From positions 463,282-527,281 of the forward strand of contig OZ246412.1 in NCBI GenBank assembly GCA_965231075.1: a stretch of DNA of 64,000 bases, read 5' to 3'. The stretch is from an uncultured Candidatus Saccharibacteria bacterium. Its GTDB lineage: Bacteria > Patescibacteriota > Minisyncoccia > RBG-13-40-8-A. The notes below the pieces were generated by a model, which did not search any database, was not told the origin of the DNA, and worked only from the letters and a program-made list of their open reading frames with translations. The position numbers and the translations under genes were made by a program. Shown one piece after another: positions 1-49,431 of this stretch. The stretch's first letter is position 1; each line of letters begins with the position of its first letter.

Positions 1-183
1 ACAATAACCTCGTAATTCTTTTGGAACGTCTTCTGGTTTTCGAATTTCTTCTTGAAAACCCTCTGAGAAAAGGGCCATATGTGTGCCTTCGGCAATATCA
101 TGTAAAGCAAAAACTCCCACTCCAGCATTTTTTATTGTGGATGGTTTTAAAATAAACGAAAAATGATCAGTTTTATTTTTCAT
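1..183 (-). CDS. hypothetical protein, N-terminal part only (gene runs off the window start)
   Basis: minus-strand ATG at 181-183 opens a frame (MKNKTDHFSFILKPSTIKNAGVGVFALHDIAEG...) that continues past position 1; absent from the ORF track because truncated. Confidence 0.3.
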   Translation of the reverse strand, partial: MKNKTDHFSFILKPSTIKNAGVGVFALHDIAEGTHMALFSEGFQEEIRKPEDVPKELRGYC

Positions 184-245
184 GTCTCCATTCTAACAGA
201 AAAATCGTCTTATTGAAAGACGGCTTTACTGGGGTTATTATTTTT

Positions 246-1568
246 TTATTCCGTTAGCAATGTCAGCGTTTTGTCTTTATAAACAATTCTCGATCTTAAG
301 TTTCCGAGCAACTCTCTTTTCTCTGATACCGATCCCTCTTTTAAAATATACTTTGCGTAATTTCGTATATCCATATCTTCTCTATTTTTGACCTTATCCG
401 TGCTACCCAATACCGATCTTTGAAATATATTGAATCTTGCAATTTCATCTTCTAATTTTTGTCGCATTCCAAGTTCATTGATATTTACCCTATCCAATAT
501 CTTCAATAACTCGGCAATTAATTCTTCTTCACGAATATATTTGTTCTTACAGTTGCGATCTACACCTCGACTACAACCATAATAAATATAATGAGCTAAG
601 GTGCCATTTTTGAGCGGTTTCCATTTTTCCTCGGCTGATATGCCGGACCCGCAATAACCACACGTAAATAGCTTTGTAAAAGCGAATTCTTTGTTTTCTC
701 TAACTATCTGATCTCGTTTTAATTGCACCTTGGCTTTTTCAAACAAATCTTGAGTGATAATTGGTTCATGTTTGCCGGTATACCAATTTCCGCTTTCTTT
801 GGGATGTTCAAAAACTCCATAATAGAATGGATTATCTAATATACGATAAACTCCACTGAGCGTAAGAGGTTTATTGCCTCTTGTATAAAAATTCAATTCA
901 AATTTAAGCCAGTTATATATCTTTCTACCCGAATAATGTTCAAACGCTACTTTTTCAAACATCTTTTTAATAATCGGTGCTCGCAATGGGTCAATGATGA
1001 TCTGACACTTCTTATCCATATGTTTTTGATTCAAATATCCAAGTGGTGCCATTCCTGGCCACAATCCCATTTCTACTCTTGTTCTTAATCCTCGCTTTAC
1101 ATTAATACCCCTGTTGTCATTTTCTAATTTCGCCTGAGATCCCAAAATCATCAGCAAGAATTTCTCATTTGGATTATTACCAAATCTTTGTCCAAATGTT
1201 CGTATGTCTAAGAGGGCACCCGAATCCATTAAATCTACAATTTTTCCTAAATCGCCAGCATTCCTTGAAATACGATCCGGCGCCCAAGTGAGAATACCAT
1301 TAAATTTACCCTGTTTTAATTCTTCAATAATCTCATTGAAGACTGGCCGTTGTCCAGTTTCTTTAGCTGAGTGCGATTCTCGCTTCATTGTTACTACTTC
1401 TAAATTCTCTCTTTCAGCCAATTGAAGCATCTCTTTGATTTGGCTATCGATAGAAAGGACTTGTCGTTCCTCTGATTCTGTTGATTTCCTCGCGTAAAGA
1501 CAATATTTAATTTTCGTTGGAACTATTGTTTTGCCCGTAGTCCCCATGGGCATTTGCGCTGTATTCAT
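246..1568 (-). CDS. large serine recombinase (resolvase/invertase catalytic domain + recombinase domain + zinc ribbon)
   Basis: N-terminal YARKSTESEERQ..SIDSQ serine-recombinase catalytic motif; C-terminal CGYCGSG...YYGCS zinc-ribbon; 440 aa typical of phage/ICE large serine integrases. Confidence 0.85.
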   Translation of the reverse strand: MNTAQMPMGTTGKTIVPTKIKYCLYARKSTESEERQVLSIDSQIKEMLQLAERENLEVVTMKRESHSAKETGQRPVFNEIIEELKQGKFNGILTWAPDRISRNAGDLGKIVDLMDSGALLDIRTFGQRFGNNPNEKFLLMILGSQAKLENDNRGINVKRGLRTRVEMGLWPGMAPLGYLNQKHMDKKCQIIIDPLRAPIIKKMFEKVAFEHYSGRKIYNWLKFELNFYTRGNKPLTLSGVYRILDNPFYYGVFEHPKESGNWYTGKHEPIITQDLFEKAKVQLKRDQIVRENKEFAFTKLFTCGYCGSGISAEEKWKPLKNGTLAHYIYYGCSRGVDRNCKNKYIREEELIAELLKILDRVNINELGMRQKLEDEIARFNIFQRSVLGSTDKVKNREDMDIRNYAKYILKEGSVSEKRELLGNLRSRIVYKDKTLTLLTE

Positions 1569-1662
1569 ATACTTAATGAATGACGCAACCTATTTCGAGA
1601 GTCAAGAGCGTCCCATGTAGGCAAACTGTCGATAAATTATCTTGTGGTATTGTCCATTATTA

Positions 1663-2988
1663 CTACATCATCGGATTATCGTAAGGGTCAAAACGTTCCT
1701 CTTCTTCCTCTTCTGTGTCGTAATCATAAAAACCTGAATCATTATTTATTTTGCTCTCAATTATAGAGGCGTAACGATGAACATCGGCAGCATGAGATGT
1801 CCAATTATGATACGGAACTTCTCTAAACATATTTTTCTTATCATCCCATTCTCGTTTATATTCCGAAATGGCATTAATCCACAACGCACAATTGTTTTCA
1901 TCAACCATTAACATATTAAACGCGAATTTACCCATCTGAATGCCTTCATCAACTCCAAGTCTAGAATCAATAACGCTAAAGGATATACCAAGATCTTTAG
2001 CATAATCAATTCTCGTTTTTCCTGTACTTGTTTCTCTGGTGTTGATATCATGAGGCGCAAAATGTTTTCCGTAATTATATTCTTTTTGTTTTACTGCCAA
2101 CACGGCCTGATCGATCCCATCATTCTCGGTCCCTTGCCAATAATCAATCATATGCAACATTGCTCCGACGCGTTGATAAAATCCGATTGCCATAGCTGGA
2201 CCCACGCCTATATCCCACACAGTATGCACTTTAAATTCTTTTCTCCAAGGAACCATGCCTATACGATTATCGTTTCTTAACATCGCCAGTTCTTCTGCAT
2301 AGACCGCACCCTTAGTCGAAGCATTAAATGAGCAATAAAGCTCTTGCATAAATTCCTCGTGCGACATTGTTCTTCTGGAATTTTCTATCTCTTTCTGGCT
2401 AATGGTTCCTGTATCATCTGCCGTAAGATGGCAAGTAAACCATTCGCTATCATTCTTGTGAGTCTCATATAATAGATAGAATTCATTTCTGCCCTTTGGC
2501 GTTCCAATCCAAATACCATATCCTCCGTTATCAATAAGCGTTGGCCGAATTACTTCAGTAAAGATATTACTCGGCTGCATGCCGTATTCATCGAATACGA
2601 CCCCGCTCAAACCAATTCCTCTTAATCGATCAGGGTTTTCTGCGCCATACAATGTTATTTTTGACCCGCCAGGAAATTCTACTGATAATTCTGATTCTTT
2701 ACATTTTACTCCTGGAAATCTCGTATATCTTTTCAAAATACTCCATCCGGCGCTTTTGGCCATCTTATAGGTTGGAGCAATATACGCATAGTTAGTGCCA
2801 GGATTTTTTATTGCACTAAATATAAGATAATTTAGGGCTGCAGTTGTTTTGCCCGCACGTCGATGCACAACAAGCACCATCCAACGTTTATCGGTCTCAT
2901 GAAATGGGATTGCCCAATTTCGTGGCCGATATAGACTTAAAGATTTTTTGTCCATAAGTTTAATGTTTCTGGTTATGATTAAACTCAA
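1663..2988 (-). CDS. phage terminase large subunit-like ATPase/nuclease
   Basis: Walker A HRRAGKTTAA, Walker B hhhFDEYG (VVFDEYGM), size 441 aa, immediately downstream of a small HTH gene. Confidence 0.7.
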   Translation of the reverse strand: MSLIITRNIKLMDKKSLSLYRPRNWAIPFHETDKRWMVLVVHRRAGKTTAALNYLIFSAIKNPGTNYAYIAPTYKMAKSAGWSILKRYTRFPGVKCKESELSVEFPGGSKITLYGAENPDRLRGIGLSGVVFDEYGMQPSNIFTEVIRPTLIDNGGYGIWIGTPKGRNEFYLLYETHKNDSEWFTCHLTADDTGTISQKEIENSRRTMSHEEFMQELYCSFNASTKGAVYAEELAMLRNDNRIGMVPWRKEFKVHTVWDIGVGPAMAIGFYQRVGAMLHMIDYWQGTENDGIDQAVLAVKQKEYNYGKHFAPHDINTRETSTGKTRIDYAKDLGISFSVIDSRLGVDEGIQMGKFAFNMLMVDENNCALWINAISEYKREWDDKKNMFREVPYHNWTSHAADVHRYASIIESKINNDSGFYDYDTEEEEEERFDPYDNPMM

Positions 2989-3328
2989 CGTCTAGTGGCG
3001 TACTTATTTCGACCTTTGTTTTGTTATACTTCGGATGACACTTATTAAGACGATAAAGAACCGCCGGCCAGTATTTTTCTTTTATTAACAACAACAACTG
3101 ATGTTCGCTCATGTCGTTAATAAATTCATCGCCCTCAGCCATGGCATCTTCAACGGCCTTAGCAAATTCCGGATCTTCATTCCGCCACCGATAATAAGTG
3201 GCTTTTCCGACTCCAGCTTTCTCGCACGCCAACAACTGAATTGGGTATTTTCTCAGTTGCTCAAGTAAAATTTCTTTTTCTTTTACTTGTCTTGCTTTAA
3301 TTGTTTTTCGTTTTTTAGCGTTGTTCAT
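2960..3328 (-). CDS. small basic HTH protein, possible terminase small subunit
   Basis: 122 aa, basic N-terminus, HTH-like segment KATYYRWRNEDPEFAKAV; overlaps the start of the terminase-large-like gene (translational coupling). Confidence 0.35.
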   Translation of the reverse strand: MNNAKKRKTIKARQVKEKEILLEQLRKYPIQLLACEKAGVGKATYYRWRNEDPEFAKAVEDAMAEGDEFINDMSEHQLLLLIKEKYWPAVLYRLNKCHPKYNKTKVEISTPLDVEFNHNQKH

Positions 3329-4650
3329 ACAATTTTTTTGGCTTTTTGGCCAGTTAATTTTTCCCAGCGATATTTAATTACTTCTGTATATACTGGCGAC
3401 TTCTCCATTACATAACAACGTCGTTTCATTTTTTCGGCTGCAATTAAGGTGCTTCCCGACCCACCAAACGGTTCAACGATTAAATCATCGCGTTTGGTTA
3501 AGACTTTAATATATGGAATCAAAATCTCAATTGGCTTCGTGCCAAATACAACTCCTTGTCCGGAGTGTTTAGCATCTTCGGCGCGAAACTCGACGAAATC
3601 GCTTGGACAATATTTTTTTCCACCTTGATATTTTTCCCATTGCGGTTTGCCACTCGTTGCGTAGAGTGCTGTCTCGTATTCGTTTTGTAATAACTCTTCT
3701 TCCGGTTCAATGTTAAGTTGCTTATTTTTGGAACTTCCGACTAACGCAAAATCATATTTGTTGAAGAATTTGTATTTTGCCGAGAATCCCTGAGAACGAT
3801 TAGGCAAATGCCAAATGATCATATTCCGCACACGCCATCGTTTTTCAATTTCTGTCCAAATATGCGGAGCATTCTTCCAATACTCAAACACAATAATGCT
3901 GAAATCTTCTTTTGCAACAGTTTTTATATTCGTCATCCACTGTTCGGTAAAATTATCTGGCAATTCATCTGTTTCAAGATACCGACGATCACGTTTGTAA
4001 CCGAATCCTTTTTTTGTATTACCACGTCGCTTAATGCCCTGGAGGTATGCGAGCAAATAAGGAGGATCAGTGAACGACATATCTGCCTTTTCCCTATTCA
4101 TGAGCTTCAAGATATCTTTTTTAACAGTAGAATCTCCACACATTAAGCGGTGTGGTCCGAGCTGATACACATCGCCTTTCTTTACTTTAATCTTTTTGAT
4201 ATCCAGTTTGGCAAGTTCTTTTTCTAAATCAAACTCTTCTGCTACATCTTCGACCGCAAATATGTTGTCCAATTCTTCTGACGCAAATCCGATATCTGCC
4301 AAAAACGATTCCTTAAAATTAGTTAGCATGTCCCAGTCAAATTCTCCGGTATTTTTATTTAGTCGGATATTTAATTCTTTTTCTCTTTCAATGTCGGCAA
4401 TGTTTAAATACACAACCGGGATTTCTTTAAATTTTAATTCTTTAGCCGCCCGCAATCTCATGTGACCACCAATTACAACATTTTTTCTATTTGAAGCAAT
4501 GTTTACAATTATTGGATCAACTATTTGGAACCGCTTTATGCTTTTCTTCAGCTGTTCCATTGATTCTTTACTAATTTTTCGAGGATTATATTCGGATGGC
4601 TTAAGTTCGTTTATTGGAACATAAACGATATTTAGTTTATTATTTTGCAT
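3325..4650 (-). CDS. ParB-like nuclease domain fused to beta-class N6A/N4C DNA methyltransferase
   Basis: N-terminal ParB/Srx fold motif (NPRKISKESMEQLKKSIKRFQIVDPIIV...GGHMRLRAAKEL); C-terminal methyltransferase motif IV TDPPY followed by motif I EPFGGSGST. Confidence 0.8.
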   Translation of the reverse strand: MQNNKLNIVYVPINELKPSEYNPRKISKESMEQLKKSIKRFQIVDPIIVNIASNRKNVVIGGHMRLRAAKELKFKEIPVVYLNIADIEREKELNIRLNKNTGEFDWDMLTNFKESFLADIGFASEELDNIFAVEDVAEEFDLEKELAKLDIKKIKVKKGDVYQLGPHRLMCGDSTVKKDILKLMNREKADMSFTDPPYLLAYLQGIKRRGNTKKGFGYKRDRRYLETDELPDNFTEQWMTNIKTVAKEDFSIIVFEYWKNAPHIWTEIEKRWRVRNMIIWHLPNRSQGFSAKYKFFNKYDFALVGSSKNKQLNIEPEEELLQNEYETALYATSGKPQWEKYQGGKKYCPSDFVEFRAEDAKHSGQGVVFGTKPIEILIPYIKVLTKRDDLIVEPFGGSGSTLIAAEKMKRRCYVMEKSPVYTEVIKYRWEKLTGQKAKKIV

Positions 4651-5364
4651 GTTTTTTGGCGATTATTAATTTTTATTTTTTTATGCTGATTAATATCGAC
4701 CGTGGCCTTCAGGAGCACACATTGATCAGTAGAACGCAAAACGAGGAACGCACAAATGCGTTCCTCGTATGATTAAAATGGAAAAATCCAGAAGTTAAAC
4801 CACAAAGATACGCATTGCAACGCAATGTTTTAATGATTTAACTTCCGGATTTTTACGAGCGATCTTCACTCAAGAATGTTGGGTCACTTCTGTTGTTCTG
4901 ATCTGATTTTGTGAGCACATTCACTCACAAAGCAATAAATACTGAACTATGCGACAGAAGGTTGAATAAACCTCGAAAAGTTTTTGGATCTATTTTATTT
5001 TTAATGCTCTATTTTAATGTTAGCAAATTTTATTAAAATGTCAAGTCCAACATTATGCCTAACAGCCCATAATGAGTCAACCTGTTGGTAACTCGACTTC
5101 GCAAAGCCATTAAAATGAGATAACATGGGATTGATGTAGAAATCGATTTAAGTTATAATTCAATTAACAATTAAATAGCTTATAAGCAGATCTAAACCAT
5201 TTAGAGAAATCTGATGGCATGATCCAAAAACGTTCAACACAGAAAGCTCTTAGTCAGAGCACGTGTTGAACGTCATATCAGGAAACTGATATGGGTCCCG
5301 CAAGGGATCGCTGGCTAGGAGCTTTGTGTTTCTCGCCAATAATAATTAAAATCTATACAAAAAC

Positions 5365-6291: not shown

Positions 6292-6492
6292 AGATACATA
6301 CAATTGAATACGTTAATTATCAAGAGTGTGGCGAGAGCACTGGCTCAATGACCCACCGGCAACCCTTTAAGGCGACTCCTCAAGGAAGGTGCCAATTCCA
6401 GCTCCAAAAGGAGAAAGATAAAAGGTCGATTTTTTATTACTCTTTCTTTGTGGAAAGAGTTTTTTAATTATTAAATTAGTAAAAATAAAAAT

Positions 6493-6906
6493 ATGGAAAG
6501 TTTTGAAGAACAATTGAAACAAGGAATTCTTTATGGATTTATTCCCAAAGAGTTACAAATAGAGGGGCGTCCGGAATTAAACGTTTTTCCATTTAACGTT
6601 CTTTTTATGCGATTTAAACAAGAAGACGGGAAAACAATTTCCGGAAGCGCAGTATATGATCCAGATTTAAATTCGTTACAACAAGGCGCAGATAAATGGT
6701 CTATGCGTTACAATAACGCTTATGGTGGCGATAGTTGGCTTATAGTCGAATATGATATTGTGAGCAGGGGTTATCATGGTAAAAAATTCGTGAATGGTAA
6801 GTGCGTCGGAATAACAGATGGCCTAGAATGGAAAGGATTTTTTATACATCTCACCATATTGGGCCTATCCAATGGTGAACAATGCAGATTTGAGACTGTC
6901 GATTAA
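6493..6906 (+). CDS. hypothetical protein
   Basis: 137 aa ORF with AT-rich genome-typical codon usage; no motif recognised. Confidence 0.4.
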   Translation: MESFEEQLKQGILYGFIPKELQIEGRPELNVFPFNVLFMRFKQEDGKTISGSAVYDPDLNSLQQGADKWSMRYNNAYGGDSWLIVEYDIVSRGYHGKKFVNGKCVGITDGLEWKGFFIHLTILGLSNGEQCRFETVD

Positions 6907-7657
6907 ATTTCTCCAAAATCCAATTCAGGGACTGGAAAAAAGAGAAGAAAAGAGATATGATGAAGATGTAATGAAATCTATAAAAAACAATAGATTTATA
7001 ATTAAATCCAAGCAGAGAATCAAGGACCATGGAGAAGTATTTACTCCTGATTTTATTGTGCAAGAAATGCTTGATTTGGTAAAAAATGAAACTGAAAGGA
7101 TTGAATCCCGATTTTTGGAACCAGCTTGTGGCGATGGAAATTTTTTAGCTCCGATACTTGAGAGAAAACTTGAAGTGGTAAAGAGCAAATATAAATCAAG
7201 CCAAGTTGAATTTGAACGGAATGCTCTTTTGGCAGTGAGTAGTATTTATGGCGTTGAATTGTTGCAAGACAACGTTGTAGCGTGTATTGAGCGACTTTAT
7301 AAAATTGTTGATGAAGTATATTCAAAATTATACAAAGAAAAGTGCAGTATTGATTTTAGAAAAAGCATTCGATTTGTATTAAACAGGAATATCTTGCAAG
7401 GCAACGCGCTTGATCTAAAAACTTCTGATGGCAAAGAGCATATAGTTTTCTCCGAATGGTCACCTGCAAATGGCAGTTCAATTAAGAGAAGAGATTTTAG
7501 ATTTTTGGCTCTATCTAATTTTTATAAACCAGGCACATTGCCACTTGATTCAGTAAAAGAACTTTCAGATACCGGCGAAACCGTATTTTCCCCAATGCCG
7601 ATAAAAGAATTTCCGTTGAAACACTATCTTAAACTTGATTATGAAGATGCAAAATAA
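6872..7657 (+). CDS. N6-adenine methyltransferase-like protein lacking the catalytic NPPY/DPPY motif (methyltransferase paralog / possible partner subunit)
   Basis: motif X FTP ([13 protein letters not shown]) and motif [11 protein letters not shown] present, no motif IV anywhere in 261 aa; overlaps downstream methyltransferase gene start. Confidence 0.5.
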
Positions 7658-9137
7658 TTACAATCCGGACGTATTGTCGTGTTTAGCAAATCTTAGTAGT
7701 GATGAAGTTTTCACACCACCAAAATTAGCGAACGAAATATTAGATTTGCTTCCTCAAAAAATTTGGAAAGATAAAAACGCAACTTTTTTGGATCCGGTTT
7801 GTAAGTCGGGAGTATTCCTTCGCGAAATTGCAAGAAGATTGTTAGAGGGACTTAAAGAAGAAATCCCAGATATACAAAAACGCGTTGATCATATTTATAG
7901 GAATCAGCTTTTTGGAATAGGCATTACTGGATTGACCTCACTACTTTCTAGGCGCAGCTTGTATTGTTCAAAATCCGCTAATGGAAAATACTCTGTATCT
8001 AACACTTTTAATAATGAACAAGGTAATATTTCTTTCGAAAAGACGGAGCATGATTGGAAAAACGGAAGATGCTCTTTTTGTGGAGCTAGCCAATCAGAGT
8101 ATCAGCGTGAGAAGGGGCTCGAAACTCACGCTTATCAATTTATACATAATAAAAAACCTAATATAATAAACAATATGAAATTTGATGTAATTATAGGCAA
8201 CCCGCCTTATCAACTCGCGACAGGAGGAGCACAAGCACAAGCGACTCCCTTATATGATAAATTTGTTTTGCAGGCGAAGAAATTAAACCCACGCTTTTTA
8301 ACAATGATCATACCATCAAGATGGTTTTCAGGCGGGATGGGATTAAATGAATTTAGGGCAGAGATGTTAAAAGATACCAGAATAAGAAAATTGATTGATT
8401 ACCCAATATCATCAGAATGTTTTCCTGGTGTCGAGATTAAGGGGGGTGTATGCTATTTCCTTTGGGATAGGGAGAATAAAGGATTGTGTGAAGTTACTTC
8501 TATTAGAGGTGACAGAAAAACCATTTCTCAGAGACCCTTGTTGGAAGAGGGTCAAGACATTTTTATTAGATTTAATGAGGCATTGTCAATTTTATCTAAA
8601 GTAAAAAAACTTAAGGAAAAGTCTTTCTCCGATATCGTAAGTCCACAAAAACCTTTTGGTTTCCCAACAAATTTTAGAGGAAAAACTAAGCCATTCAAAA
8701 ACGCAGTTAAAATTTATGTCACAAAAGAAATAAATTACGTAAATAGAGAAGATATTTCTACTAATCTTGATTGGATTAATCAATATAAAATATTAATTAC
8801 CAAGGGTTATGGTGCTGGCGAAGATTACCCCCATCAGATAATTAATAAACCAATTCTAGCTGAACCAGGAAGTTGTTGTTCTGAGACTTATATTGTCTTG
8901 GGAACATTTTCAAATAAAACACAAGCTCAAAATGCAATATCCTATATAGAGACAAAATTCTTCCGATTTTTGGTGATGTTACAAAAAAACACTCAGGACG
9001 CATTGAGACGTGTTTATACTCTTGTCCCAATACAAGATTTTTCTGAATCATGGACTGACGAAAAGTTATATAAAAAATACAAATTAACAAAAGAAGAAAT
9101 TGAGTTTATTGAATCTATGATTCGTCCGATGAAATAA
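7635..9137 (+). CDS. gamma-class N6-adenine DNA methyltransferase (Eco57I/TaqI-like arrangement) with C-terminal target-recognition region
   Basis: motif X VFTPP, motif [12 protein letters not shown], motif [10 protein letters not shown] in canonical gamma order; ~300 aa C-terminal extension. Confidence 0.8.
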
Positions 9138-9138
9138 T

Positions 9139-11670
9139 ATGAGTAAAGATTTCTTTCCGCAAAAACCTGAAATTAGACCCACTATTTACGCCTATGAACT
9201 TATAGGCGTTGATTCACATAAGGGCCTGTTTAAGGTTGGCTACACTGTTCGTAATGCACAAGACAGAGTCGCCGAGCAATTAAAAACTAGCCGGCTTAAA
9301 TATAAAATTGTTCTCGAAGAATTCGCTGTTAGAAACGACGGAACTGCCTTTACAGATCATGAAGTCCATCATTATTTGAAACGTCGTAGCATTAAGAAAG
9401 AAGACGGAGAATGGTTTAAATGCACCGTAAAAGATATCAAGTCGGCTATCAATGATATAAGGAATCGAAAATTTAGTGTTGAAACGCGGGGATCAAATTT
9501 TAAAATGCGTCCAGAACAGAAGGCGGCGGTAGAAAAAACAGCAGATTATTTTGCGAGTTATAAAAAAGAAAATCCCAGTAAAACACCGCATTTTTTATGG
9601 AATGCAAAAATGCGTTTTGGTAAAACTTTTGCAACCTATCAATTGGCGAAAAAGATGGAGTGGACAAAGATTTTGGTAATGACTTTTAAGCCAGCAGTAG
9701 AAAGTGCTTGGGATGACGATTTAAAGGAACATGTTGATTTTCGAAATTGGCAATTTGTTTCAGCATCAGAGGACACGCTTTGGCATAAAGATATTAATCC
9801 CAAAAAACCGTTCGTGTGCTTCGGTTCATTTCAAGATTATTTAGGAAAAAATAAAAGCACAGGCGGTGTCAAAACAAAAAATAAGTGGGTACATAAAACT
9901 AAATGGGATTGTATTGTATTTGATGAATATCATTATGGTGCGTGGCGAGAAAATGCCAAAGAACTTTTTGAAGCAGAAGATAAAAAAGAAAAAGAATTTG
10001 CCGAGGGTCAAGGACTGGAATATTTAGACGAAAAAACATTGCCCATTGAAACGGAGGCATATTTATACCTTTCGGGGACTCCGTTTAGAGCAATAGCATC
10101 TGGCGAATTTATCGAGGAACAGATTTATAACTGGACATACTCGGACGAACAAAAAGCTAAAAATTCTTGGAATGACAAAGAAGGTTCTAATCCGTATGCC
10201 CCTCTTCCGCGCATGGTAATGATGACCTATCAACTACCGGATTCAATTCGAGATATAGCAATGCAGGGCGAATTCAATGAATTTGATTTGAACTTGTTTT
10301 TCTCTGCGGAGGGCAAGGGCAGGAATGCAAAATTTGCTTATGAGGACGAAGTTCAAAAATGGCTCGATTTGATTCGGGGTTCATTTTTAGAAACAACGAT
10401 TGACAACTTAAAGCTTGGCGCAAAAAAGCCTCCAATGCCCTTTTCTCATGCGGAACTTTTGAGTGTATTAAATCACACACTTTGGTTTTTGCCATCAGTT
10501 GCTTCGTGTCAGGCAATGTATAATTTACTAAAGAAAAAACAAAATACTTTTTATCATGATTATGAAATCATTGTGGCAGCAGGTCAGAAAGCGGGTATCG
10601 GGTTAAAAGCACTTCCGCCAGTTTTGGAAGCCATGGAAGATCCGCTGGAATCAAAAACTATTACTTTAACTTGTGGAAAGCTTTTGACTGGCGTAACCGT
10701 AAGGCCGTGGACAGGTATTTTCATGCTTCGCAATTGTTCAACTCCGGAAACATATTTTCAAGCCGCTTTCCGTGTTCAGTCTCCGTGGATCGTCAAAAAC
10801 CCGGATAACAAATCTCCGAATAAAGAAGAAATTATCAAGCAAGAGTGTTATGTCTTTGATTTTGCGCCCAATAGAGCATTGAGACAAATTGCTGAATATA
10901 GCTGTCGTCTTAACGTAAACGAATCTAATCCAGAGGCAAAAGTGGCTGAGTTTATAAGTTTTCTTCCGGTGCTTGCATATGATGGGAGTGCCATGAAACA
11001 AATCGATGCAGCGGGAATTTTAGACATGGCAATGAGTGGTACTACAGCAACACTTCTTGCGCGACGATGGGAAAGCGCCCTACTTGTAAATGTCGACAAC
11101 AATACATTAAACAGATTAATGAATGACAAAGCAGCAATGGACGCGCTCATGAGCATTGAAGGGTTTAGAAATTTGAATCAAGACATTGAGACGATTATTA
11201 ACAAATCCGAGTCTGTTGAAAAGATAAAAAGGGAGACGAACGACAAAGAGTTATCCAAAAAAGAGAAGAGAGAGCTTACCGAGGAAGAAAAAGAATACAA
11301 GAGTCTCCGCAAGCGGGTGCAGGATAAGCTTATTAAGTTTGCTACTCGCATACCCGTCTTTATGTATCTTACAGATTATCGCGAAAGAACATTAAAAGAT
11401 GTGATTACAAAACTAGAGCCTGGATTATTTAAAAAAGTTACCGGATTAACTCAAAAAGATTTCGAATTACTTGTAAGTCTCGGGGTATTCAATAGTGCAC
11501 TGATGAACGATGCGGTTTATAAGTTTAAGCGATATGAAGACGCGAGTCTTGTTTATACTGGAATAAATAAACACGAAGGTGAAAAAATAGGTCTTTATGA
11601 TACTGTGATCTCACAAGGAGAACATCGAAACGAGTCCGAAAAAATACTTATAAATAATCCGGCTGAATAA
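9139..11670 (+). CDS. T5orf172/GIY-YIG-like domain fused to SF2 (ResIII/DEAH-type) helicase; Res-like subunit
   Basis: N-terminal YAYELIGVDSHKGLFKVGYT...R motif of T5orf172/GIY-YIG superfamily; Walker A AKMRFGKT, motif II VFDEYHYGA, motif III LSGTPF, motif VI QAAFRVQS; start codon 1 nt after methyltransferase stop. Confidence 0.75.
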   Translation: MSKDFFPQKPEIRPTIYAYELIGVDSHKGLFKVGYTVRNAQDRVAEQLKTSRLKYKIVLEEFAVRNDGTAFTDHEVHHYLKRRSIKKEDGEWFKCTVKDIKSAINDIRNRKFSVETRGSNFKMRPEQKAAVEKTADYFASYKKENPSKTPHFLWNAKMRFGKTFATYQLAKKMEWTKILVMTFKPAVESAWDDDLKEHVDFRNWQFVSASEDTLWHKDINPKKPFVCFGSFQDYLGKNKSTGGVKTKNKWVHKTKWDCIVFDEYHYGAWRENAKELFEAEDKKEKEFAEGQGLEYLDEKTLPIETEAYLYLSGTPFRAIASGEFIEEQIYNWTYSDEQKAKNSWNDKEGSNPYAPLPRMVMMTYQLPDSIRDIAMQGEFNEFDLNLFFSAEGKGRNAKFAYEDEVQKWLDLIRGSFLETTIDNLKLGAKKPPMPFSHAELLSVLNHTLWFLPSVASCQAMYNLLKKKQNTFYHDYEIIVAAGQKAGIGLKALPPVLEAMEDPLESKTITLTCGKLLTGVTVRPWTGIFMLRNCSTPETYFQAAFRVQSPWIVKNPDNKSPNKEEIIKQECYVFDFAPNRALRQIAEYSCRLNVNESNPEAKVAEFISFLPVLAYDGSAMKQIDAAGILDMAMSGTTATLLARRWESALLVNVDNNTLNRLMNDKAAMDALMSIEGFRNLNQDIETIINKSESVEKIKRETNDKELSKKEKRELTEEEKEYKSLRKRVQDKLIKFATRIPVFMYLTDYRERTLKDVITKLEPGLFKKVTGLTQKDFELLVSLGVFNSALMNDAVYKFKRYEDASLVYTGINKHEGEKIGLYDTVISQGEHRNESEKILINNPAE

Positions 11671-12133: not shown

Positions 12134-12885
12134 AAAATTTAATCGGAAAAATTATGTTTATTTTTTTAGAGAGACAAAGAGGGAGATTGAATCAATGGTT
12201 AAAGAAAAAAACAACAATAGATTTTTCGGATTGGGGAGTTTTTATTTTATTCCTTGAAGGATTGTTTGCAATTATCTATTTAAATAAAGCCGCAAAAATC
12301 GCTGATATAATATCTGCCGTAGTCTTATGGTTTACTGCAATTGCGATATTGCAGTATACAAAGGAGACATACTGGTTGAAGCAAATACAAAACAAGCAAA
12401 TCAAAGAATTAAGAAAAAGCAGATGTTTAGAAAAAATGCCCATGATAAGAATTGTTTCTATGGACATAGAGAAGAAACCTCCAATACCCAAAGTTGATCC
12501 GTCAAGGATTCCACCAATAAAAGATAAAAATTTCTATAAAATCATTTATAAAAATATCGGAGAAGATTGGGCATTTATAAATAGCATCACAATGTGGGTA
12601 GGAAATCCGGCACCAGAAAAAGAGATCGTTTTTGAAGAACACGCATTCAAGAAAACTCTATTCAGAAACGAGGAAGATATTGTCGTTACTTACAATATAG
12701 AGAAAAAACAAAACGGCGAATTATTGCTTTTTCCCCGTAAAATAGAAATATCATTTTCTGATAGGTATGGAAATAATTTTGTTTATAAAGCCGAAAAGAT
12801 TTTACAATTGGCCGAACCAACTCCATTTTTGGGCGTTAGAGACTATATCAAAGAAGAGATACAATATCCTTCTAATTTGAGATAG
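12103..12885 (+). CDS. hypothetical membrane protein
   Basis: 260 aa, two N-terminal hydrophobic helices; true start may be internal Met near 12154. Confidence 0.35.
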   Translation: MAGFKESSEIKNLIGKIMFIFLERQRGRLNQWLKKKTTIDFSDWGVFILFLEGLFAIIYLNKAAKIADIISAVVLWFTAIAILQYTKETYWLKQIQNKQIKELRKSRCLEKMPMIRIVSMDIEKKPPIPKVDPSRIPPIKDKNFYKIIYKNIGEDWAFINSITMWVGNPAPEKEIVFEEHAFKKTLFRNEEDIVVTYNIEKKQNGELLLFPRKIEISFSDRYGNNFVYKAEKILQLAEPTPFLGVRDYIKEEIQYPSNLR

Positions 12886-12940
12886 ACGATTAACAAAAAT
12901 TTAATTTTAGAAAACAACCCCATAATAAAGTTTAAAAATC

Positions 12941-13546
12941 ATGCACAGATTTAGAAATCCATTTATAGATATCGCTACATTGGTGGCTTTAATTATCAAT
13001 ACCATTGCTTTAATTGTGGTCATTTGGCAAACCATTATTGCGAAACGATCATTGGCTGTCACCAAAAAAAGTGTTGACGACGCAAAAACGCAAAGGCAAT
13101 TAGAAGCGCTTCCAAAATTCGCATGGGTAATTGAAATACAGGTGCAGTTAGAATGTTGGAAAAAGAGTTTACAAGAAAAAAGAGATCTGCTACAAAAAGG
13201 AATAGATGAAAAAAACAATGAAATGTTTAAAAAGGCAAGCGATACCAAAATAAAGAGTTCAAAAGATTTAGCCCTCAATAGATTTCTTTATGACAATATG
13301 CCCGCTTGGTTGCGAGAATTGTGGATGTCTGGTGTTCAATATTATTATGATGCGATAGCTGCACTACCCTATGTCTATAAAGACGAAAAACCAAACCATG
13401 ATTATGCTAAAAAATGGATAAAGGAGCGGTGTGGAGATTCATTACAAGCCATTTCAAAACTATTGGAATACTTTAAAGAAATGGTGCCACCTGTGATTTT
13501 AGACACGCCAGCAAGTTTGTCCGATAAAGATTTTTTGAGAGATTAA
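12941..13546 (+). CDS. hypothetical protein with N-terminal transmembrane helix
   Basis: 201 aa, TM helix LVALIINTIALIVVIW then charged coiled-coil-like region. Confidence 0.35.
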   Translation: MHRFRNPFIDIATLVALIINTIALIVVIWQTIIAKRSLAVTKKSVDDAKTQRQLEALPKFAWVIEIQVQLECWKKSLQEKRDLLQKGIDEKNNEMFKKASDTKIKSSKDLALNRFLYDNMPAWLRELWMSGVQYYYDAIAALPYVYKDEKPNHDYAKKWIKERCGDSLQAISKLLEYFKEMVPPVILDTPASLSDKDFLRD

Positions 13547-13578
13547 AGAGTGGAAAATAATAATAAAAAAATAAATTT

Positions 13579-14109
13579 ATGGATCAACTTAGTGGATTAT
13601 TTGGAAAATTGTTATTGTATTTGGGGCCAATTTTTATTGTGGCCTTAATAATTAAATATTTATTGCCAGAATTAATTAAGGCATTCAAGATAAGGAAGAA
13701 ATTTAAAGCTGGGCAAAAATGGAGTTCAGAAAAAGATTTAATTTATTGGTTGCGAGGAATGAAACCGTGGGAGTTTGAGGAATACATTTCTGGACTATTT
13801 TCAAAATTAGGTTATAAAATAGAAAAAGTCGGTGGAGGATATGATAAAGGAGTCGATGTTATTGCAGAGAAAAATGGAATTAAACACTATATCCAATGCA
13901 AGAAATACATAACTTCTGAAGTTGGAGTTGGCGAGGTTAGAGATTTTTATGGCGCAATTGCCGATCATTTGGCCCAAGGCAAGGGTTATTTCATAACCAC
14001 GAACAAATTCACCTTAGAAGCAGAAAAATTCGCTGAAAGCAAGCCAATCGAACTAATTGATTCTTATGGACTACTAAAGTATATTAAATTGGCAGAAGAT
14101 AAAAAATAA
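13579..14109 (+). CDS. membrane-anchored Mrr-like restriction endonuclease (Mrr_cat domain)
   Basis: N-terminal TM helix then YDKGVDVIAEK...IQCKKY (PD-(D/E)xK of Mrr family), GAIADHLAQGKGYFITT typical downstream segment. Confidence 0.65.
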   Translation: MDQLSGLFGKLLLYLGPIFIVALIIKYLLPELIKAFKIRKKFKAGQKWSSEKDLIYWLRGMKPWEFEEYISGLFSKLGYKIEKVGGGYDKGVDVIAEKNGIKHYIQCKKYITSEVGVGEVRDFYGAIADHLAQGKGYFITTNKFTLEAEKFAESKPIELIDSYGLLKYIKLAEDKK

Positions 14110-14799: not shown

Positions 14800-16308
14800 A
14801 TGAACGACGATTTATTGCAAAAATTAAAAGTCTGGAGACAAAACATGGTCAACATTGAAAAAGTTGAACCATTTCGAATTTTTACAAACAAAACATTGGA
14901 AAATATTGCAGAAATAAAACCATCAAACCGAGAGGAGCTGATGGCTATAAAGGGTATCAAAGATAGAAAATTTGCAAAATATGGAGAAAAGATTCTATCT
15001 ATAATCAATAATGGTGAAGAGTATCCAGAATTATTTAATAGTTCTCCAAACAAGCAACCCGACAAACCACTGTCTGTTAGTGCGTATATAGATTTGTTGA
15101 ATCATCAACTGAGCAAGTGTAGTGCCAGAATTAAGGGGGAAATTAGTAGTGTAGACACAAGAGATCGAGTTATATATTTCTCGCTCAAAGATTCAGACGA
15201 TGAGAGTATTATTAATTGTTTAATTTGGAAACGCGATTATAATTTGAGTGGCATTGAATTTGAGGTGGGCATGGAAGTTATTCTTGAAGGAACGCCCGAC
15301 ATGTACAAACCAACTGGTCGACTGTCGTTTAAGGCCTCATCGGTTGAGTTGGTTGGAGAGGGTGCCCTTAAAAAAGCATATGATCAATTGAAAAAGAAAC
15401 TCACCGCTGAAGGATTATTGTTAAAGGAGAGAAAAAGAGAAATTCCCAACCTTCCCCAAAAAATCGGAATAATTACTTCTCGACAAGGAGCAGTTTTAGC
15501 GGATTTCTTAAGTAATATTGGCCATTATGGTTTTAAAATTAAAATGATTGATTCTAGAGTCGAAGGACAGTCAGCTGTCACAGATTTACTGTCAGCCATT
15601 AAAACCATCAAGAAAAAAAATATTGAAGTTTTAGTTATCATGAGGGGCGGCGGTTCTTTTGAATCATTGCAGCCATTTAATAATGAATTATTAATTAGAG
15701 AGATTGTAAATTTTCCCGTTCCGGTAATTGCGGCAATTGGTCACGACAAAGACATGCCATTAGTTTCTTTGGTTGCAGACCTTGAAGTTTCCACGCCAAG
15801 CATTGCCGCCATTACGCTCAGCAAATCATGGAGGGAAGCCATTATGTTTTTAGAAAAGCATGAAAGAAGTATATTTGATAATTATGGAAATAACATAAAA
15901 AATACACACGACTTAATAAGTCAATCAATCGAGATAACTCGAGAATCCAGCGAATCTATTATCAAAAAATATAAAGATATTAAAAATAATTTTAGAGTCT
16001 CGGTCCAAATTTTTAAAAACACTTTATTAAATATTAAAGATGGTTTAACAGATTTTTGTAGCAAAACATTATTCGGTTTTAGCGGATTAGTTAAGAGAGG
16101 GTATCAACAACTGGAAAAATCGAGAAGCATTATCTCCGCGCATAATCCAGAACGACAATTGAGCCTGGGATACAGCATAGCTAGCATTGACGGCAAGATA
16201 GTTAAAAGCGTAAAAGATGCCACCGCGGGAAACAACATAAATTTAATGGTTACCGACGGAACGATTATTTCACAAATTAAAAATATAAATAAGAAATTAA
16301 TAAAATAA
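14800..16308 (+). CDS. xseA: exodeoxyribonuclease VII large subunit with N-terminal HRDC domain fusion
   Basis: residues ~1-80 match the HRDC pattern (LQKLKVWRQN..EPFRIFTNKTLENIAEIKPSNREELMAIKGIKDRKFAKYGEKIL); rest matches XseA (IGIITSRQGAVLADFL, VIMRGGGSFESL, AIGHDKD). Confidence 0.85.
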   Translation: MNDDLLQKLKVWRQNMVNIEKVEPFRIFTNKTLENIAEIKPSNREELMAIKGIKDRKFAKYGEKILSIINNGEEYPELFNSSPNKQPDKPLSVSAYIDLLNHQLSKCSARIKGEISSVDTRDRVIYFSLKDSDDESIINCLIWKRDYNLSGIEFEVGMEVILEGTPDMYKPTGRLSFKASSVELVGEGALKKAYDQLKKKLTAEGLLLKERKREIPNLPQKIGIITSRQGAVLADFLSNIGHYGFKIKMIDSRVEGQSAVTDLLSAIKTIKKKNIEVLVIMRGGGSFESLQPFNNELLIREIVNFPVPVIAAIGHDKDMPLVSLVADLEVSTPSIAAITLSKSWREAIMFLEKHERSIFDNYGNNIKNTHDLISQSIEITRESSESIIKKYKDIKNNFRVSVQIFKNTLLNIKDGLTDFCSKTLFGFSGLVKRGYQQLEKSRSIISAHNPERQLSLGYSIASIDGKIVKSVKDATAGNNINLMVTDGTIISQIKNINKKLIK

Positions 16309-19622: not shown

Positions 19623-20591
19623 ATGAGTCACAAAATATTCTCAGAAAAAATTGATCTTATTCACAAGGCTCGCGAAGCCATGCTTTCGGCTGTTCAAATT
19701 TATAATAATCCACTCATCACATTTAAGACAGAATCTTTTATAGTTCTATCATTAATTGCGTGGACTTATATGCTTCATGCACACTATCGTTCTGAGAGAA
19801 TTGATTATCGTTATTCTACTATACCAAAAAAGCGCAAAAAATTTGTTCGTAATCCAGACGGAAGTATTCGTTATTGGGATCTAACGGAATGTATTTCCCG
19901 ACAAGCCTGTCCTCTCGACAAAGACACAAAAAATAATTTAGGCTTTCTGATAGGATTGCGGAATCAAATTGAACACAAAAAAGCTACGGGACTAGATTCA
20001 TATCTATCGGCTCGTTATCAAGCATGTGCCCTAAATTTTAATTATTACCTTAAAAAAATTCATGGAGAAAAATTTGGATTAGATCAAAGCCTAGCTCTAA
20101 GTTTACAATTTGCGGAACTCGATTATTCTCAATCAAAAATTATCAAAGATAAAGAAGGATTAATACCTCAGGATATAATTTCTTATATCGCTAATTTCGA
20201 TGGCAAACTATCAAATGCCGAGATAGAGAGTGACAGATTCGCATATAGATTACTTTTTACTAAAGTGGTTGCGAAAAGAAAAGGACAAGCAGATAGAGTT
20301 ATCGAGTTTATTGATCCAAATTCGAAGCTAGCCAAGAATATCTCTCAGCAATATTGGGTTAAAGAAGAAAAAGAGAAAGCAAAGTTTTCTGCGACTCAAG
20401 TAATCCAAAAAGTGCAAGAAGCTGGATTTAAAAGTTTTAGCATGCATCAACATACTGTTTTTTGGAAAGAGCGTGATGGCAAAAATCCCGACAAGGGATT
20501 CGGGGTAATTGTGGTTAAAACATGGTGTTGGTACCAAAATTGGATTGATTGCATAATCAACGAACTTAATAATGAAAAAACGGACAAATGA
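19623..20591 (+). CDS. HEPN-domain protein (Rx4-6H motif), Abi-like
   Basis: alpha-helical protein with GLRNQIEHKK (R-x4-H HEPN signature). Confidence 0.55.
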   Translation: MSHKIFSEKIDLIHKAREAMLSAVQIYNNPLITFKTESFIVLSLIAWTYMLHAHYRSERIDYRYSTIPKKRKKFVRNPDGSIRYWDLTECISRQACPLDKDTKNNLGFLIGLRNQIEHKKATGLDSYLSARYQACALNFNYYLKKIHGEKFGLDQSLALSLQFAELDYSQSKIIKDKEGLIPQDIISYIANFDGKLSNAEIESDRFAYRLLFTKVVAKRKGQADRVIEFIDPNSKLAKNISQQYWVKEEKEKAKFSATQVIQKVQEAGFKSFSMHQHTVFWKERDGKNPDKGFGVIVVKTWCWYQNWIDCIINELNNEKTDK

Positions 20592-20637
20592 GACACGAGA
20601 CAATACCCATAAAAAGTGTCTCATTTGTCTTATTTGT
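20588..20637 (+). terminator. Rho-independent terminator after HEPN gene
   Basis: atgagacac / gtgtctcat 9-bp stem followed by ttgtcttatttg. Confidence 0.65.
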
Positions 20638-20664
20638 AAAAGCTGACCCCGACCCACGTGCTTC

Positions 20665-20693
20665 TTGAAATAGAGCCGAAAAAATGTTAAAAT
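20665..20693 (+). promoter_or_regulatory. sigma70-like promoter TTGAAA-17-TAAAAT for GGDEF gene
   Basis: ttgaaatagagccgaaaaaatgttaaaat read directly, ~40 nt upstream of ATG 20733. Confidence 0.5.
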
Positions 20694-20732
20694 ACCCTTA
20701 CGGTACGGGTTACTTAACCCGACTGTTCCGCA

Positions 20733-21302
20733 TTGTTTATGTCTAGTGAAATAAAAATCCTACAAAAAGAAAATCGAGAATTAAAAAAAGAAATCAACCA
20801 ACTAAAGGAATTGGTTACCGTTGATTATCTCACTAAAATATATAATCGTCGTGCTTTTTCTCATTTTTTAAAAAATCTTTGCCAAGAAGTAAAATGGACG
20901 GCTCAAAACATGAGTCGTCGACAGCGCAAAGAATTTTTTTCTTTATTGTTAATTGATATCGATGATTTTAAAAAAATAAATGATGCCCACGGACATCTCT
21001 ATGGTGACAAGGTTTTACAAAAAGTCGCAAGGTTTTTAGAAAACTCCGTTAGAGATTTTGATGTTGTCGCTCGGTGGGGAGGCGAAGAATTTGTAATTAT
21101 TTTACAAGAGGCAACCCTTAGACAGGCCCAAGCTAGGGCAGAAGTAATATTAAAAAATGCTCCTAAAAAACTATCGATTACCTTTAGCATTGGCGTAGTC
21201 GAATCAAGTCCTGGACTTACAGAAAAATCAATATTCCATAAAGCCGATCGTGCTGTTTATAAAGCAAAAAGGTTGGGCAAGAATCAAATTGTTTTAGCGT
21301 AA
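20733..21302 (+). CDS. GGDEF-domain diguanylate cyclase with N-terminal coiled coil
   Basis: RxxF...IDIDDFKKINDAHGH...RWGGEEF active-site motif. Confidence 0.85.
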   Translation: MFMSSEIKILQKENRELKKEINQLKELVTVDYLTKIYNRRAFSHFLKNLCQEVKWTAQNMSRRQRKEFFSLLLIDIDDFKKINDAHGHLYGDKVLQKVARFLENSVRDFDVVARWGGEEFVIILQEATLRQAQARAEVILKNAPKKLSITFSIGVVESSPGLTEKSIFHKADRAVYKAKRLGKNQIVLA

Positions 21303-49246: not shown

Positions 49247-49334
49247 ATTTTTTACGTTCGGACCTGTCCATCTTTGGCGGAGAGTGGAGGATTTTCCGCC
49301 CAAGGCGGACCAGCCTCGGGCTGGGAACTACATT

Positions 49335-49421
49335 CGGAGAGGGTGAGATTCGAACTCACGATACCTTTTCAGATATACCGCTTTTCGAGAGCGGCCCATT
49401 CAACCACTCTGGCACCTCTCC
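49335..49421 (-). tRNA. tRNA-Ser (anticodon CGA), type II
   Basis: minus strand ggagagg...cctctcc g; anticodon stem ccgct/agcgg loop ctcgaaa; T-arm gtgag ttcgaat ctcac. Confidence 0.85.
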
Positions 49422-49431
49422 ATTATTGCGG

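Follow-up and report, generated by a model that had tools for sequence, protein, structure and literature searches.

Phage-inducible chromosomal islands (PICIs), VEIMEs/PICMIs and PICI-like tycheposons have been described as encoding a small terminase (TerS) but no large terminase (TerL), and most tycheposons combine tyrosine recombinases with TerS or a capsid protein, not with TerL. Capsid-forming PICIs (cf-PICIs) have both TerS and TerL and, in addition, genes for HNH, a protease, the major capsid protein, the portal and head-tail connectors; only their tails come from the helper phage. No described satellite type is capsid-less and has TerS together with TerL, and the literature searched describes neither satellites in bacteria of the candidate phyla radiation (CPR) nor TerS- and TerL-bearing satellites without capsid genes. 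The locus analyzed here has this make-up and lies in a 64-kb stretch of contig OZ246412.1 (positions 463,282 to 527,281, hereafter the window) from a Patescibacteria (CPR) chromosome. At 246–4650, on the minus strand, it encodes a large serine recombinase, TerL, a TerS-like protein and a fusion of a ParB N-terminal domain with a DNA methyltransferase (ParB-MT), preceded by a structured leader and, on the opposite strand, a LOOT RNA (Rfam RF03000). We propose that CPR/Patescibacteria have a family of integrative chromosomal islands linked to tRNA-Ser and that the four genes, LOOT and the leader are its conserved core, the LOOT-terminase cassette, which would be satellite-like, with its own complete terminase and no capsid, and would probably load island DNA into helper-phage capsids; in our judgment this reading has roughly an even chance of being correct. 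All coordinates are those of the window, L-numbers denote collected loci, and the left flank of the window was read from the source contig as L001/L179.

PICIs/SaPIs, VEIMEs/PICMIs and PICI-like tycheposons resemble the cassette-bearing island in being chromosomal, in having a site-specific integrase, often next to a tRNA gene, and in having no capsid or tail genes; PICIs and marine satellites resemble it also in encoding their own packaging-specificity TerS, in carrying defense and other cargo and in their presumed dependence on helper capsids. Unlike PICIs, the cassette has a full TerL, a large serine recombinase, ParB-MT and a dedicated structured RNA, and none of the PICI hallmarks (Stl-type repressor, AlpA, primase/replicase, capsid-remodeling genes) was recognized among the open reading frames (ORFs) of the putative island using Pfam, PHROG and NCBIfam. 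With cf-PICIs it shares TerS and TerL, but not capsid, portal, protease or connectors; of the tycheposon traits, tRNA-Ser-proximal arms and cargo are present, and the replication module usual in tycheposons was not found. Elements that use serine recombinases (phiC31/Bxb1-type, SCCmec CcrAB, PLE integrase) are alike in the three domains of the enzyme, in short att sites without long direct repeats, in the inverted symmetry of half-sites about a small core and in attL, attR and attP arrangements that can be recovered by comparison, but differ in that the target of the cassette is the 3′ end of tRNA-Ser genes with several anticodons and no directionality factor was identified. The packaging genes are closest to those of podophages. 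HTVC010P-type and related uncultured podophages carry a module of ParB-MT, TerS, TerL and an SU10/T7-type portal, and the cassette TerL is ~40% identical over its full length to that of 35-kb pelagiphage isolates and up to ~57% identical to those of uncultured podophages, some of them in Paceibacterota metagenome-assembled genomes (MAGs). In podophages, TerL is followed by the portal and further structural genes, whereas the cassette clade has none and has gained the recombinase, LOOT and a specific leader. From its gene content, the cassette appears to work most like a satellite packaging module, but it does not have the defining make-up of PICIs or cf-PICIs and fits tycheposons only in part. 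An earlier note on this DNA, made from the sequence alone, had offered a satellite or PICI-like element that hijacks a helper phage, or else a decayed prophage. Of these readings, a satellite-like element that depends on a helper is the best at hand, while the PICI make-up did not stand (TerL is present, the recombinase is of the serine type and repressor, primase and capsid-remodeling genes were not found).

The recombinase (246–1553 as called, 435 amino acids [aa]; longest ORF to 1568; minus strand) was identified using Pfam and PHROG, with matches to Resolvase (E = 2e-19), Recombinase (1e-14) and Zn_ribbon_recom (2e-8), all above Pfam cut-offs, and to phrog_95 integrase (7e-65). Its translation contains the catalytic YARKS motif and resolvase, recombinase and zinc-ribbon domains; the nearest NCBIfam families are CcrB and XisF, and it was assigned to neither because it scored far below both cut-offs. 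A terminator-like hairpin, read from the sequence, lies directly 3′ of its stop codon at 200–230 (minus strand), where the next gene, encoding a SET-domain protein, begins at 183; an equivalent hairpin and T-run are at the same place in other loci. TerL (1663–2955 from the likely start, 430 aa; ORF 1663–2988; minus strand) was identified using Pfam, PHROG and PDB. It matches Terminase_6N (1e-13; Pfam score 51.8 versus a cut-off of 22) and phrog_2 TerL (2e-33), its residues 21–395 align with the solved Thermus phage TerL 5oe8, and a further PDB match is 4zni. The ATPase domain is N-terminal and the nuclease domain C-terminal, and G35-K36-T37 (Walker A), D122-E123 (Walker B) and the acidic residues D248, D303 and D391 are invariant in 20 members of the clade described below. 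By these matches and this layout, TerL is a genuine full-length phage large terminase, not a non-phage P-loop protein as the earlier note had allowed it might turn out to be; att arms, the lack of which the note had named alongside, can also be recognized (see below).

Between TerL and ParB-MT lies a gene for a 122-aa helix-turn-helix protein of the phBC6A51 type (2960–3328, minus strand), identified as small-terminase-like from PHROG and fold matches. It matches five PHROG small-terminase families (best 3e-10) and falls just under the Pfam cut-off for HTH_Tnp_1_2 (phBC6A51-type helix-turn-helix); one source labels a homologue "phBC6A51 family helix-turn-helix protein". An AF2 model made with 40 homologues is all-helical (pLDDT 84), and its best fold matches are Sf6 gp1 TerS, a phBC6A51 protein and phage TerS proteins, none of which reaches E ≤ 1e-3. 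Its size and its position immediately upstream of TerL fit a small terminase. A PDB sequence search with this protein gave only spurious RecA and TetR matches. ParB-MT (3325–4650, 441 aa, minus strand; Pfam, PHROG and PDB) matches ParB_N (3.5e-13), N6_N4_Mtase (6e-23) and phrog_498 (1e-86), contains the DPPY and FGGSG motifs of a beta-class N6A/N4C methyltransferase, and has PDB matches to ParB 4umk (ParB/Noc part) and CcrM 6pbd. In PADLOC-DB v2, no model matched TerL, TerS or the recombinase, and ParB-MT was matched only by generic MTase_II models; NCBIfam likewise gave TerL, TerS and the recombinase no usable assignment. The earlier note was right about the four co-oriented minus-strand genes of phage type and about the identity of each; its feature list was incomplete, in that it overlooked what proved the most informative parts: the att system at tRNA-Ser, LOOT, and the conserved leader and terminator of the operon.

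The distribution of the cassette was assessed in 188 loci from metagenomes, genomes and viral contigs that were gathered through homology to TerL. The cassette is intact in ~25 distinct loci, with TerLs 55–99% identical; all loci with TerL identity of at least 64%, and a few at 56–57%, show one gene order: ParB-MT, 122-aa protein, TerL. In these loci, TerL is followed by the serine recombinase or leads straight to unrelated genes, and recombinase homologues follow TerL in most of them, with the linkage found in ~18 distinct loci of unrelated contexts. In loci of lower identity, TerL is followed by a co-oriented ORF of 520–700 aa, and 92 of 98 such ORFs fall into homology clusters that hold a portal or connector recognized by Pfam or PHROG. 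A portal-type ORF follows TerL in no cassette locus. The cassette is free of structural genes in ~25 loci, some on contigs of 164–538 kb (10-kb flanks were inspected). Neighbor joining of 119 distinct TerLs placed all 23 from cassettes, together with one from a short contig, in a single clade that contains no phage TerL, and ~95 phage TerLs outside it. This distribution indicates that a podophage packaging-initiation module (ParB-MT, TerS and TerL) was captured once, in an ancestor, and kept functional in many genomes with no capsid, portal or tail gene. The labels of some cassette MAGs (L002 as Gammaproteobacteria, L007 as Humimicrobiaceae) may be binning errors.

Two further observations concern the layout of cassette loci. 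In L002, the segment 12776–17012, past a fused att site (P′-P, see below), looks like a second cassette variant that stands in tandem but lacks TerL: a 228-aa ORF is accompanied by another ParB-MT, ~65% identical in nucleotides to the first copy, by a TerS-like ORF of 172 aa, by a gene with an SNase domain and by a LOOT RNA. Several independent assemblies (L099, L100/L019, L101, L111 and L139) have contig ends inside TerL or the recombinase or shortly past them, which suggests population heterogeneity or repeats at this place and is consistent with near-identical recombinase genes common to otherwise divergent cassettes.

The LOOT RNA lies at 5189–5309 on the plus strand, divergent from the operon, and matches the Rfam model over positions 1–121 (84.9 bits versus a gathering score of 46.4) with the six-helix architecture; a candidate promoter is at 5131–5159. 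A covariance model was built from five copies and run on the 2.1 Mb of collected DNA. It found 22 copies in the loci fetched with TerL in addition to the window's own, all of them in cassette-type loci, and none in any phage-type locus; in five cassette loci no copy was found even with filters off. Overall, LOOT accompanies ~20 of 23 cassette loci. LOOT is usually 390–540 bp upstream of ParB-MT on the opposite strand, and is downstream in a basal sub-clade and in L002. Among 19 distinct sequences, compensatory changes are seen at 33 of 41 base pairs, and paired cells make up 97%, versus ~40% for slid controls. A role as leader of the adjoining downstream gene was ruled out, as the gene beyond LOOT belongs to at least nine unrelated families; since the loci differ in that gene, LOOT is part of the cassette and not of a neighboring gene. 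In the literature searched, LOOT is a metagenome-derived small RNA candidate only, with no function or gene association, and no paper ties it to terminases. LOOT would be an RNA component dedicated to the packaging module, or a regulator of it. In L180, LOOT and the gene HAD132 each occur twice. The additional copies (704–1443; LOOT 95 bits, plus strand; HAD132 inverted) stand beside a gene for an OLD-family nuclease (AAA_15/AAA_21 plus TOPRIM); as this LOOT is 7 kb from the cassette's own, LOOT can duplicate apart from the terminase genes.

The promoter and structured 5′ leader of the ParB-MT/TerS/TerL operon (4651–5080, minus strand) were defined by alignment, RNAalifold and a promoter and terminator scan. 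Two sigma-70-like candidate promoters of consensus-like sequence are at 5080–5052 and 5044–5017 (minus strand). The leader of ~350 nt contains a long hairpin (4857–4781), a hairpin with T-run (4768–4741, minus strand) that the scan scored as a terminator, and a third helix before the ATG. In an alignment of 15 loci, RNAalifold predicted 37 pairs, 14 of them with compensatory double changes, and a hidden Markov model of the leader matched all main-clade cassette loci and 0 phage loci. The terminator points to an operon that stays off until some signal permits read-through; a helper antiterminator is a plausible one.

On the recombinase side, the cassette region runs up to a conserved "end sequence" of 60–70 nt (P′ arm); a tRNA-Ser gene on the other strand adjoins it with its 3′ end. 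This junction was found in ~15 distinct loci, with tRNA-Ser anticodons gga, gct, cga and tga, at distances past the recombinase from 0.1 kb (L009, L010, L106, L173) to 8.7 kb, with cargo between. In the window genome, the P′ arm and tRNA-Ser(gct) are outside the window at about −8440 to −8593 (L179 19993–20147), beyond a gene for alanyl-tRNA synthetase (AlaRS) and 8.7 kb past the recombinase; the end sequence is absent from the window itself. The partial ORF at 1–183 (minus strand), which the earlier note had cited for a possible extension of the element past the left edge, is the 5′ part of the SET-domain gene, the first cargo gene between the recombinase and this distal arm; the DNA on that side is cargo and not phage DNA.

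A putative P arm, forming an attR-like junction, is at 20636–20741 (plus strand; also delimited as 20636–20733) and was identified by homology to L101 1148–1244 and L002 12842–12947; its assignment to the island is tentative and its boundary uncertain. It imitates the 3′ half of a tRNA (..ACGGGTTACTTAACCCGACTGTTCCGCA/TTG..). In L101/L181 and L002 the P and P′ arms are fused in an attP-like site, whereas in the window genome they are apart, with tRNA-Ser joined to P′ (attL-like) and P joined to other DNA at 20636–20741 (attR-like). Three of the four arrangements (B-P′, P-P′ and P-B′) were thus found across different genomes. The half-sites have GGGT(T/C) ~22–26 nt from the common CCGCA/TTG core, a spacing pattern expected for the sites of large serine integrases (phiC31/Bxb1-type). 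The predicted attP consists of the P arm and the P′ arm (...CCCGACTGTTCCGCA/TTGACAACTTTTTATCGGCATGACCC...), and the predicted attB of the tRNA-Ser(gct) 3′ end and B′ (...CCCTCTCCGCA/TTGTTTATGTCTAG...). The P arm was found only in the window, L101/L181 and L002, and therefore the ends of the island cannot be defined at other loci. It also contains a near-consensus promoter, TTGAAA-N17-TAAAAT (window 20668–20741; L101 1147–1250), that reads across the att core and points into a GGDEF gene beyond the core (20739–21302) in the window and into the AlaRS gene in L101/L181, with their fused arms; a recombination event would thus change how the gene past the core is expressed.

Other candidate features of this att system were also considered. 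Searches for direct repeats of the tRNA-Ser 3′ end at the far end of each locus gave only short matches at chance level, and a small ORF beside the P′ arm is not a conserved directionality factor, the candidates in L180 and L183 being unrelated. L101 was considered as a circular excised form; the contigs with identical TerL, L180 and L181, differ in their flanks, L181 stops at TerL, and L188 has another arrangement. A partial tRNA-3′-end-like sequence, TGGCGGAGAGTGGAGG, at window 49275–49290, ~45 nt from tRNA-Ser(cga) (49334–49422, minus strand), may be the scar of a past integration. A Ser(cga)-Ala(ggc)-Arg(cct) tRNA trio adjoins the cassette in L107 and L108 and is 49 kb from it in the window; a 49-kb inversion was considered as the origin of this distance, and the L107/L108 flanks share nothing with the window.

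Signs of mobility are per-gene identities that are discordant between loci, host GC contents that span 34–53%, and cargo that differs even among close relatives. Identities to the window are 83% for ParB-MT, 58% for TerS, 70% for TerL and 93% for the recombinase in L107, and 71%, 84%, 80% and 82%, respectively, in L007. Among close relatives (TerL 84–99% identical), the LOOT side keeps a backbone of HAD132, a 137-aa ORF, a PD-(D/E)XK nuclease and XseA. The restriction-modification (R-M) inserts in this backbone vary: the window and L188 have a type IIG-like block and L183 a type I block, while L099 has other DNA and L101 no insert. On the recombinase side, the same relatives have entirely different gene blocks, and in distant loci this side carries ArsR/thioredoxin/permease-type or metal-transport operons, identified by eye from translations. 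Cargo on the two sides of the core comprises R-M systems, metal and redox operons, a RiPP-like cluster and aminoacyl-tRNA synthetase genes. The last were seen in three related genomes, in the stretch from recombinase to tRNA-Ser arm (L179 11371–19975, L180 12755–20206 and L183 12774–18045) and encode a short 640-aa AlaRS by a radical-SAM/LanB-like cluster in the window genome, a tRNA-synt_1b enzyme in L180, and GluRS, CysRS and an archaeal-type S-adenosylmethionine (SAM) synthetase in L183; they are either odd cargo or a sign of rearrangement at this place.

If the cassette is a satellite-like packaging module, the island would integrate beside tRNA-Ser via the serine recombinase, and the leader terminator would hold the packaging operon off. 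Infection by a helper phage of a related lineage (TerL ~50–55% identical, SU10/T7-type portal, genome of ~35–50 kb) would lead to read-through, after which island TerS and TerL would recognize an island pac site and fill helper procapsids with island DNA, either excised and concatemeric or in situ along with adjacent cargo. Such packaging would spread the island and divert capsids from the phage, and ParB-MT would either mark or protect the packaged DNA, or control pac cleavage. A phage relative from the same phylum has TerL followed by a portal (L012, a Paceibacterota MAG), and a ParB-MT homologue is directly upstream of TerL in some phages. A bolder version, which we consider distinctly unlikely, would make LOOT an obligatory RNA partner of the terminase machine, either a subunit or guide of the ParB-MT/TerS/TerL complex, like phi29 pRNA, or a switch that senses helper infection, within a class of capsid-less, terminase-bearing hitchhikers that would move themselves and adjacent chromosomal cargo (defense systems, aminoacyl-tRNA synthetase genes) between CPR bacteria by in-situ, lateral-transduction-like packaging.

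Packaging in helper capsids is a step that we infer from the conserved cassette and its att arms, and several results weigh against it. There is no direct sign of excision, packaging or a helper; a search for an empty attB via the GGDEF gene that flanks the P arm returned the source contig only, and no circle junction was observed. Replication, repressor and excision-directionality genes were not recognized among the ORFs of the putative island with Pfam, PHROG and NCBIfam, although divergent unknown proteins are possible. About one quarter of cassette loci (L004/5, L109, L112, L113 and L120 among them) have an intact trio of ParB-MT, TerS and TerL and a LOOT RNA without the recombinase, and therefore the packaging module persists in loci that seem to have lost self-mobility. 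Cassette GC follows that of the host, which implies long residence and not frequent transfer. In the window genome, the att-delimited segment of ~29 kb would hold the AlaRS, XseA and YceG genes, which is odd for a mobile element, and close relatives, including contigs whose TerLs are identical, differ by rearrangements of the neighborhood; therefore the arms may mark chromosomal rearrangements driven by the recombinase and not the ends of an island. The attP-like fused site of L002 lies inside a 348-kb contig. Finally, pairing of LOOT with the operon leader was not apparent by the crude method used, RNAduplex energies being alike for cognate, non-cognate and shuffled pairs (mean z 0.13).

Four other explanations were weighed. 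The cassette could be a domesticated host or defense module in which the terminase, its cognate methyltransferase and LOOT sabotage phage packaging, by competing for procapsids or by cutting unmethylated phage concatemers in a restriction-like or abortive manner, with the recombinase and arms secondary. We consider this unlikely; in its favor, the trio and LOOT are intact at loci without the recombinase, the cassette stands beside variable R-M and nuclease genes in several genomes, its pairing of a methyltransferase with an ATPase-nuclease resembles R-M logic, its GC is ameliorated to the host and the synteny on the LOOT side is stable among relatives. Such a module would not be expected to show, as most loci do, a recombinase and a conserved att arm at tRNA-Ser, or modules that are mosaic between loci as in mobile elements, and TerL, TerS and the recombinase lack a PADLOC model; satellites, moreover, also interfere with phage packaging, so that this explanation overlaps with a satellite-like island. 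The recombinase could instead be chiefly a chromosomal rearrangement enzyme acting at tRNA-Ser-like sites by inversion, excision or shuffling of blocks, the arms being breakpoints and the cassette a mere neighbor. The three close relatives with three different housekeeping blocks between recombinase and P′ arm, the inverted duplicates of HAD132 and LOOT in L180, the fused P′-P site inside a 348-kb contig and the tRNA-3′-end-like scar at 49275–49290 would all fit. We nevertheless think it improbable, because the recombinase and cassette are linked in ~18 distinct loci with a common mosaic history, the cargo between recombinase and arm is elsewhere typical accessory DNA, and the conservation of TerS, TerL, ParB-MT and LOOT is left unexplained.

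Known gene transfer agents (GTAs) have dispersed loci, and a GTA-like system or dispersed cryptic prophage could keep its structural genes elsewhere in the ~0.6-Mb genome, with the cassette supplying only the terminase. The dispersion of GTA loci, TerS and TerL that are complete and under selection, and the local absence of structural genes (window and 10-kb flanks of the 626-kb contig covered) agree with this, but the same structural-gene-free layout in ~25 loci, as well as in the 64-kb window and 10-kb flank, the very small size of CPR genomes, and the linkage to an integrase and att sites, which is not a GTA trait, make it quite improbable. That the cassette is a decayed prophage, the last genes left after deletion of the structural genes, as the earlier note had suggested as its other option, accords with the phage origin of the genes and with the ParB-MT homologue upstream of TerL in some genuine phages. 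Independent decay is excluded because the cassette TerLs are monophyletic and separate from phage TerLs, their catalytic residues are invariant, and the cassette is intact and recurrent; the set of three or four genes persists in ~25 loci at 55–99% identity, and decay would not halt at the same boundary each time. Phage loci, moreover, lack the conserved leader and the LOOT RNA of the cassette, and cassette loci differ widely in flanks and host GC, unlike one recently inherited remnant. Of the four, only the prophage remnant is effectively excluded.

The cassette shows that a complete terminase can persist over long evolutionary times with no capsid genes, which points to a mode of phage parasitism or of gene transfer by phages that is intermediate between TerS-only satellites and capsid-forming PICIs. 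LOOT, a heavily covarying orphan RNA family, gains its first genomic and functional context, with ParB-MT, TerS and TerL as its partner set. The mobile elements and transfer routes of CPR/Patescibacteria are poorly known, and the cassette sits at a hotspot of turnover of defense and even housekeeping genes. The predicted serine integrase and its att pair, which target tRNA-Ser, come with concrete attP, attL and attR sequences and could serve as a tool.

The remainder of the window is an ordinary small bacterial chromosome, with genes for XseA, YceG, GyrA, RecG, FtsH, LepA, MurJ and IF-2 and 16 scattered tRNAs. GyrA is 87–90% identical to proteins labeled Patescibacteria, Paceibacterota or Candidatus Portnoybacteria, and the host chromosome is that of a member of Patescibacteria (CPR). 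The 10 kb to the left beyond the recombinase contain the SET-domain gene, an AP endonuclease gene, the radical-SAM/LanB-like cluster, AlaRS and tRNA-Ser(gct); to the right of the operon are LOOT, two small ORFs, a SAM riboswitch, a split type IIG-like R-M system, Mrr, the PD-(D/E)XK nuclease and XseA. Capsid, portal and tail genes are absent within 10 kb on either side of the cassette, so that the earlier statement that none follow the four genes holds also past the left edge of the window, and PHROG scans of other large unannotated ORFs across the window found no structural proteins.

Several features of the LOOT side were noted in addition. A SAM-I riboswitch (RF00162, 67 bits) heads an unknown 137-aa ORF and a split type IIG/ISP-like R-M block (window 6314–11670) composed of a 261-aa methyltransferase-like ORF, an Eco57I-type methyltransferase and T5orf172 plus a ResIII helicase; a DNA-methyltransferase operon under a SAM riboswitch is an unusual arrangement. 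This 5.4-kb block is strain-specific: L188 has it, L101/L180 lack it, and L099 and L183 have other DNA in its place. A second strain-specific insertion, at 12154–14093 between the conserved 137-aa ORF and the PD-(D/E)XK nuclease gene, contains unknown ORFs of 260 and 201 aa and an Mrr_cat restriction endonuclease gene and is absent from L099, L101 and L188. XseA (exonuclease VII large subunit, 14800–16308) has an N-terminal HRDC domain, an uncommon fusion that is kept in L180, L181 and L188. The last gene before the P arm, at 19623–20591, encodes a DUF3644 protein (phrog_9605, 5e-14).

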